From Escherichia coli 042 (GTDB taxonomy: Bacteria; Pseudomonadota; Gammaproteobacteria; Enterobacterales; Enterobacteriaceae): DNA of 64,000 bases. Below the pieces are notes generated by a model that was not told the DNA's origin, did no database searches, and was given only the letters and a program-made list of their open reading frames with translations. The stretch is taken from assembly GCF_000027125.1 (NCBI RefSeq), contig NC_017626.1, one strand, 5' to 3'. The number at the start of each line of letters is the position of its first letter. Positions within the stretch are counted from its first letter, which is position 1. The position numbers were made by a program, and so were the translations under genes. Shown here in pieces: positions 49,501 through 49,548 of the stretch.

Positions 49501-49548
49501 ATGAAACACACACCGTTTTTCTTCGCATTCTTTTTTACCTTCCCCTGA
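49501..49548 (+). CDS. pheL: pheA leader peptide (Phe-rich)
   Basis: Hand translation: [15 protein letters not shown] (15 aa, 7 Phe). Not in ORF track. Confidence 0.9.
   Translation: [15 protein letters not shown]

Follow-up and report, generated by a model that had tools for sequence, protein, structure and literature searches.

Enterobacterial pheL leaders are grouped by how the short ORF ends, and the group whose ORF terminates in UUC_CCC_UGA (group A, the group of Figure 2A) was defined by Gurvich et al. (2011, PMC3082878). That paper describes most pheL codons as variable, with conservation of the Phe codons and of the UUC_CCC_UGA end. A primer for K-12 pheL printed in the same source contains ATGAAACAC ATACCGTTTTTC.

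The window analyzed here is a stretch of 64,000 nucleotides from Escherichia coli 042 (contig NC_017626.1), in which pheL reads ATG AAA CAC ACA CCG TTT TTC TTC GCA TTC TTT TTT ACC TTC CCC TGA. An earlier note, made from the letters of the window, had pointed out that codon 4 is ACA (Thr) and had given Ile for K-12. Translation of the window agrees with the first statement, and the same locus fetched from the K-12 chromosome NZ_CP047127.1 (locus L001) and translated agrees with the second, since codon 4 is ATA (Ile) there. It is very likely that the locus is an ordinary E. coli pheL-pheA transcription attenuator that carries the majority natural Thr4 (ACA) leader allele, and that this allele is probably neutral. 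The Thr4 polymorphism of pheL is already known, and the Thr4 peptide is present in RefSeq as WP_001386991.1. A full-text literature search with both 15-amino-acid peptide strings, Thr4 and Ile4, found no papers.

The leader and its surroundings

The gene order bamD-raiA-pheL-pheA/tyrA-aroF is the usual arrangement for pheL. In the annotation of strain 1190, whose sequence matches the window at 100% identity across 49380-49680, bamD and raiA lie 5' of pheL, the + strand carries pheL and pheA, and the opposite strand carries tyrA and aroF. All genomes examined have the regulated gene pheA annotated at the corresponding position. The leader lies directly upstream of pheA and on the same strand, with the pheA ORF beginning 22 nt past the T-run of the attenuator (Table 1). 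Runs of Phe codons within a short leader ORF characterize the Phe_leader family, and 7 of the 15 codons of pheL encode Phe. The end of the ORF at 49540-49548 is TTC CCC TGA, as in group A. A consensus scan of 49380-49680 for sigma-70 promoters called none because the putative -10 element of pheA is weak.

Table 1. Features of the raiA-pheL-pheA region (positions in the window)
Feature	Position	Strand	Description and basis
raiA ORF	49056-49397		Upstream gene; strain 1190 has raiA annotated at the corresponding position
raiA intrinsic terminator	49421-49440	+	8-bp stem with 6 G-C pairs, then T-run; terminator scan
-35 hexamer of the pheL-pheA promoter	49446-49451	+	TTGACA; by eye from the sequence and a published primer (PMC3082878)
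Putative -10 element	49470-49475	+	TACTGT, weak; tentative assignment
Shine-Dalgarno-like sequence	49489-49493	+	AAGGA, 7 nt 5' of the pheL ATG; invariant in an 8-genome alignment
pheL leader-peptide ORF	49501-49548	+	15 codons plus TGA, 3' end TTC CCC TGA; translated from the window
Codon 4, polymorphic site	49510-49512	+	ACA (Thr) here, ATA (Ile) in K-12
Regulatory Phe codons	49516-49524 (codons 6-8), 49528-49536 (codons 10-12), 49540-49542 (codon 14)	+	7 Phe in 15 codons; translation
Pause/protector (1:2) hairpin, long	49515-49591	+	Phe-codon region paired with 49566-49591, inner helix CCUUCCCC:GGGAGG; Rfam consensus structure and minimum-energy fold
Antiterminator (predicted)	49550-49605	+	UGGGAGGC (49550-49557) paired with GCCUCCCA (49598-49605, terminator 5' arm)
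Attenuator: intrinsic terminator and T-run	49595-49625	+	Hairpin 49595-49619, 10 bp with 7 G-C, then TTTTTT; terminator scan, Rfam and minimum-energy fold
pheA (chorismate mutase/prephenate dehydratase), regulated gene	49648-50808	+	386-aa ORF

Outside the ORF the leader haplotype of the window is rarer. It has G rather than A at 49479, just past the putative -10 element and near the presumed transcription start, C rather than T at 49608 in the terminator loop, and an additional A in the A-run at 49633-49638, which separates the terminator from the ribosome-binding site of pheA. Strain 1190 has all three changes and strain N96 has the first two, and the exact 76-nt stretch 49585-49660 occurs in only 94 of 5426 genomes. 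The changes at 49479, 49608 and 49633-49638 leave the base pairs of the stems untouched.

Some E. coli genomes have a P2-like prophage, with integrase, cox and replication endonuclease genes, integrated between raiA and pheL, as in MSI001 (locus L131, 1-5848) and 1604D011 (locus L132, 1-2909). Similarity between such genomes and the window breaks within the raiA terminator hairpin, at about 49420-49427 of the window. Matches were found at 5580 places in 5425 genomes, so that up to about 155 genomes contain a further, incomplete copy, which fits a duplicated attachment site. The raiA-pheL junction of the window is uninterrupted.

Predicted structures of the leader RNA

The segment 49500-49625 aligns with the Rfam model Phe_leader (RF01859) over model positions 1-125 of 125 with a score of 132.2 bits (E = 7e-25), and the gathering score that Rfam sets for this family is 55 bits. 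The minimum-energy fold of the leader RNA has an energy of -52.9 kcal/mol (z = -5.5 versus shuffled sequences). An intrinsic terminator lies between the leader ORF and pheA. The earlier note had described the Phe-codon run and the attenuator hairpin at 49595-49625 as intact, and both descriptions hold: all seven Phe codons (6-8, 10-12 and 14) are present, and the hairpin at 49595-49619 is followed by the T-run to 49625.

Complementarity between UGGGAGGC and GCCUCCCA is exact over 8 nt. In silico, the antiterminator forms in the fold of an RNA that ends at 49606 or 49609 if a ribosome mask extends up to 49545, and it is absent from the fold of the same shortened transcript without the mask. These folds thus predict the alternative pairing of an attenuator, an antiterminator incompatible with the terminator and made available by a stalled ribosome. 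When the entire leader is folded under a ribosome mask, the terminator stays the minimum-energy structure at every stall position. The antiterminator is seen only before the 3' arm of the terminator has been transcribed because the terminator is thermodynamically stronger. A kinetic switch would be expected to behave in this way, and the outcome does not count against attenuation. As predicted from its sequence and folds, the pheL-pheA element is a complete pheA attenuator of the ordinary E. coli type.

The element would be expected to operate as follows. Transcription would start from the weak promoter behind TTGACA (49446), and a ribosome would translate the 15-codon leader. When Phe-tRNA is plentiful, the ribosome would pass the seven Phe codons to the stop codon, allowing the 1:2 hairpin and then the terminator at 49595-49625 to form, and formation of the terminator would end transcription ahead of pheA. 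With Phe-tRNA scarce, a ribosome stalled on the Phe codons would cover CCUUCCCC, leaving UGGGAGGC (49550-49557) available for pairing with the terminator 5' arm (49598-49605). With the antiterminator paired, RNA polymerase would read on into pheA. We infer that attenuation by this leader in vivo follows these lines.

Distribution of the codon 4 alleles in E. coli

Counted as BLAST identity bands in a collection that is biased to clinical and laboratory strains and phylogenetically unbalanced, the 65-nt stretch 49486-49550 of the window is matched at 99% identity or more and with no mismatches in 3563 of 5426 complete E. coli genomes (a few of these alignments span only 64 of the 65 bases), and the same stretch with the ATA of K-12 is found in 1382 of the 5426. 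About 480 genomes carry other minor variants of pheL. Four of these variants were sampled, namely CAT at codon 3, ACG at codon 4, T13I, and F7S with T13I, and codon 4 encodes Thr in all four. The K-12 version of the query matched 4992 genomes in all versus 5422 for the window version, and therefore 3563 and 1382 do not sum to the total. We take the lower figure for the K-12 query to be an effect of the 28-mer word size of megablast on doubly variant sequences.

Thr4 is the majority allele of E. coli, present in about two thirds of the complete genomes and across phylogroups. The Thr4 pheL coding DNA is identical in O157:H7, LF82, O103:H2 12009, an ST69 strain and strain 1190, strains that represent phylogroups E, B2, B1 and D; K-12 belongs to phylogroup A. 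The window is not the deviant, since the minority allele is that of K-12. The earlier note had proposed comparing pheL across phylogroups and had reasoned that Thr, if common in E. coli, would make the difference an ordinary polymorphism. With 3563 versus 1382 of 5426 genomes, and with Thr4 in strains of phylogroups B1, B2, D and E, an ordinary polymorphism is what the comparison reveals. A sequencing or assembly error at C49511 was considered as well and is rejected, given the identical 65-nt sequence in 3563 independent complete genomes.

The product name in RefSeq follows the codon 4 allele among the 14 loci fetched and the matches listed. Ile4 genomes among the matches listed are labelled 'phe operon leader peptide' (WP_010723158.1), and those with Thr4 or another variant bear the name 'pheA operon leader peptide PheL' (WP_001386991.1 and others).

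Two of the minor variants alter the conserved core of the leader or its regulatory codons. In A1_181 (locus L007, 216-263) the T13I substitution (ACC to ATC) changes the conserved core, and in MSI001 (locus L005, 216-263) F7S accompanies T13I, so that one of the seven regulatory Phe codons is lost. The pheL genes of MSI001 and A1_181 both have T changed to A right after the stop codon. Judged from its sequence, F7S would merit more interest than the Thr4/Ile4 difference as a candidate for altered attenuation.

Variability across species and the direction of change

Species-representative genomes were scanned once with the pattern ATG-N12-(10-residue core)-stop, which matched at least 120 Enterobacterales species. 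The 10-residue core is present in all of these species because the search pattern required it. Codons 2-5 are hypervariable among the matches listed (at least 120 Enterobacterales species), and codon 4 encodes K, V, L, T, I, R, F, D, Q, P, A, E, H or S, which amounts to at least 14 amino acids in the at least 120 species. Variability of this order argues against any constraint on codon 4, and the position appears to be free to change. Among the leaders of Salmonella enterica, those of subsp. diarizonae (locus L059, 5224-5271) and subsp. arizonae (locus L065, 6769-6816) are without the Pro at codon 5 (position -10) that stimulates +1 frameshifting two-fold in E. coli according to Gurvich et al. 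(PMC3082878).

E. albertii is the only other Escherichia species among the matches listed, and the leader of its type strain begins MKHTP, with CAT ACT as the codons for His and Thr. Because E. albertii also has Thr, Thr4 is probably ancestral in the genus and the Ile of K-12 derived, a polarity that rests on one outgroup. The ATA codon of K-12 would then probably be a derived C-to-T transition from ACA. A general caution follows from the pheL case, which is that K-12 does not always have the typical E. coli sequence; here its Ile4 is a minority allele and probably a derived one.

Possible influence of codon 4 on the switch

All the regulatory Phe codons lie 3' of codon 4, which falls in none of the pause, antiterminator and terminator helices. 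Neither the Rfam consensus nor the minimum-energy fold of either allele shows it as paired. Changing C49511 alone to T (ACA to ATA) leaves the minimum-energy structure the same and the energy the same (-52.9 kcal/mol), and the energies of ribosome-masked folds are identical for the ACA and ATA alleles with all masks. A minor effect is seen in the ensemble, where the pairing probability of the first two bases of codon 4 is about 0.33 with ATA versus about 0.05 with ACA. Both codons are of low usage in the long ORFs of the window, ATA at 3.5 per 1000 being the rarest Ile codon and ACA being used 5.1 times per 1000. Thr4 and Ile4 are probably selectively neutral or nearly so with respect to each other, because codon 4 is decoded before the regulatory codons and takes part in no helix.

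ATA is read by tRNA-Ile2, a minor and scarce tRNA. As no Ile codon is rarer than ATA, early translation of the leader could conceivably proceed at a slightly different rate, and such an effect would concern the K-12 allele and not Thr4. A stronger form of this idea is that the difference is a functional regulatory variant, with the change from ATA to ACA altering the speed at which the ribosome enters the Phe run, its timing relative to RNA polymerase and the set-point of pheA. An attenuator leader does work kinetically, and a ribosome slowed at ATA, with its usage of 3.5 per 1000, would mask the very beginning of segment 1 (start 49515). The contrast in usage is small, however, as ACA, at 5.1 per 1000, is also used little, and the predicted structures and energies of the two alleles are equal. 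Moreover, both alleles are highly frequent in E. coli (3563 and 1382 genomes), and codon 4 is occupied by many codons, for at least 14 amino acids, across at least 120 species. A functional regulatory variant is therefore very unlikely. It is highly improbable that the derived ATA of K-12 slows entry of the ribosome into the Phe run enough to make pheA attenuation weakly sensitive to tRNA-Ile2 in K-12-type strains. If this were the case, decades of attenuation data from K-12 would describe a minority variant, and Thr4 would provide the ancestral, 'normal' set-point.

A role for the residue at codon 4 could also be sought in the nascent peptide. Ribosomes shift to the +1 frame at UUC_CCC_UGA with a frequency of about 15%, and the nascent peptide stimulates the shift (Gurvich et al., PMC3082878). 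Codon 4 corresponds to position -11 and adjoins the Pro at -10 (codon 5), which has a 2-fold, stimulating effect on frameshifting at CCC_UGA (PMC3082878). In the available part of the same paper, however, the effect of the nascent peptide is assigned to the last three codons and the Pro at -10, no effect is reported for position -11, and constructs with only three wild-type codons before CCC_UGA keep the wild-type level of frameshifting. The authors also judged the frameshifting to be incidental and without effect on pheA expression (PMC3082878). That the codon 4 residue bears on frameshifting is hardly credible in light of these results.

Probable neutrality of an ordinary strain difference is the preferred reading, and it had been offered in the earlier note, where the change was called "probably neutral strain variation". 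The frequency of Thr4, the variability of codon 4 and the unchanged predicted folds support that assessment. The same note had worried that a change of a single codon might alter ribosome pausing, for which no support was found, codon 4 being upstream of the Phe codons, outside the helices and hypervariable. There is no sign of altered pheA regulation in this strain; Thr4 matters very little and is ordinary strain variation.

Comparison with known pheL leaders

The closest known relatives of the leader are the other Thr4 pheL genes (WP_001386991.1), those of O157:H7, LF82, O103:H2 12009, the ST69 strain and strain 1190, for which the 48-nt coding sequence is identical to that of the window. 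These genomes have the same context, raiA-pheL-pheA/tyrA-aroF, and there is no difference within pheL. K-12 pheL (WP_010723158.1) shares with the window its length, its Phe codons, its UUC_CCC_UGA end and its predicted pause, antiterminator and terminator helices, and differs by one base inside the ORF, the codon being ATA (Ile) there and ACA (Thr) here. The resemblance extends to enterobacterial pheL of group A and to RF01859, which like the window have a short ORF with two Phe triplets and a Phe-Pro-UGA end (PMC3082878). Group A and RF01859 also share with the window the pause hairpin and the attenuator 5' of pheA. No relevant difference separates the window from group A, whose codons 2-5 vary freely.
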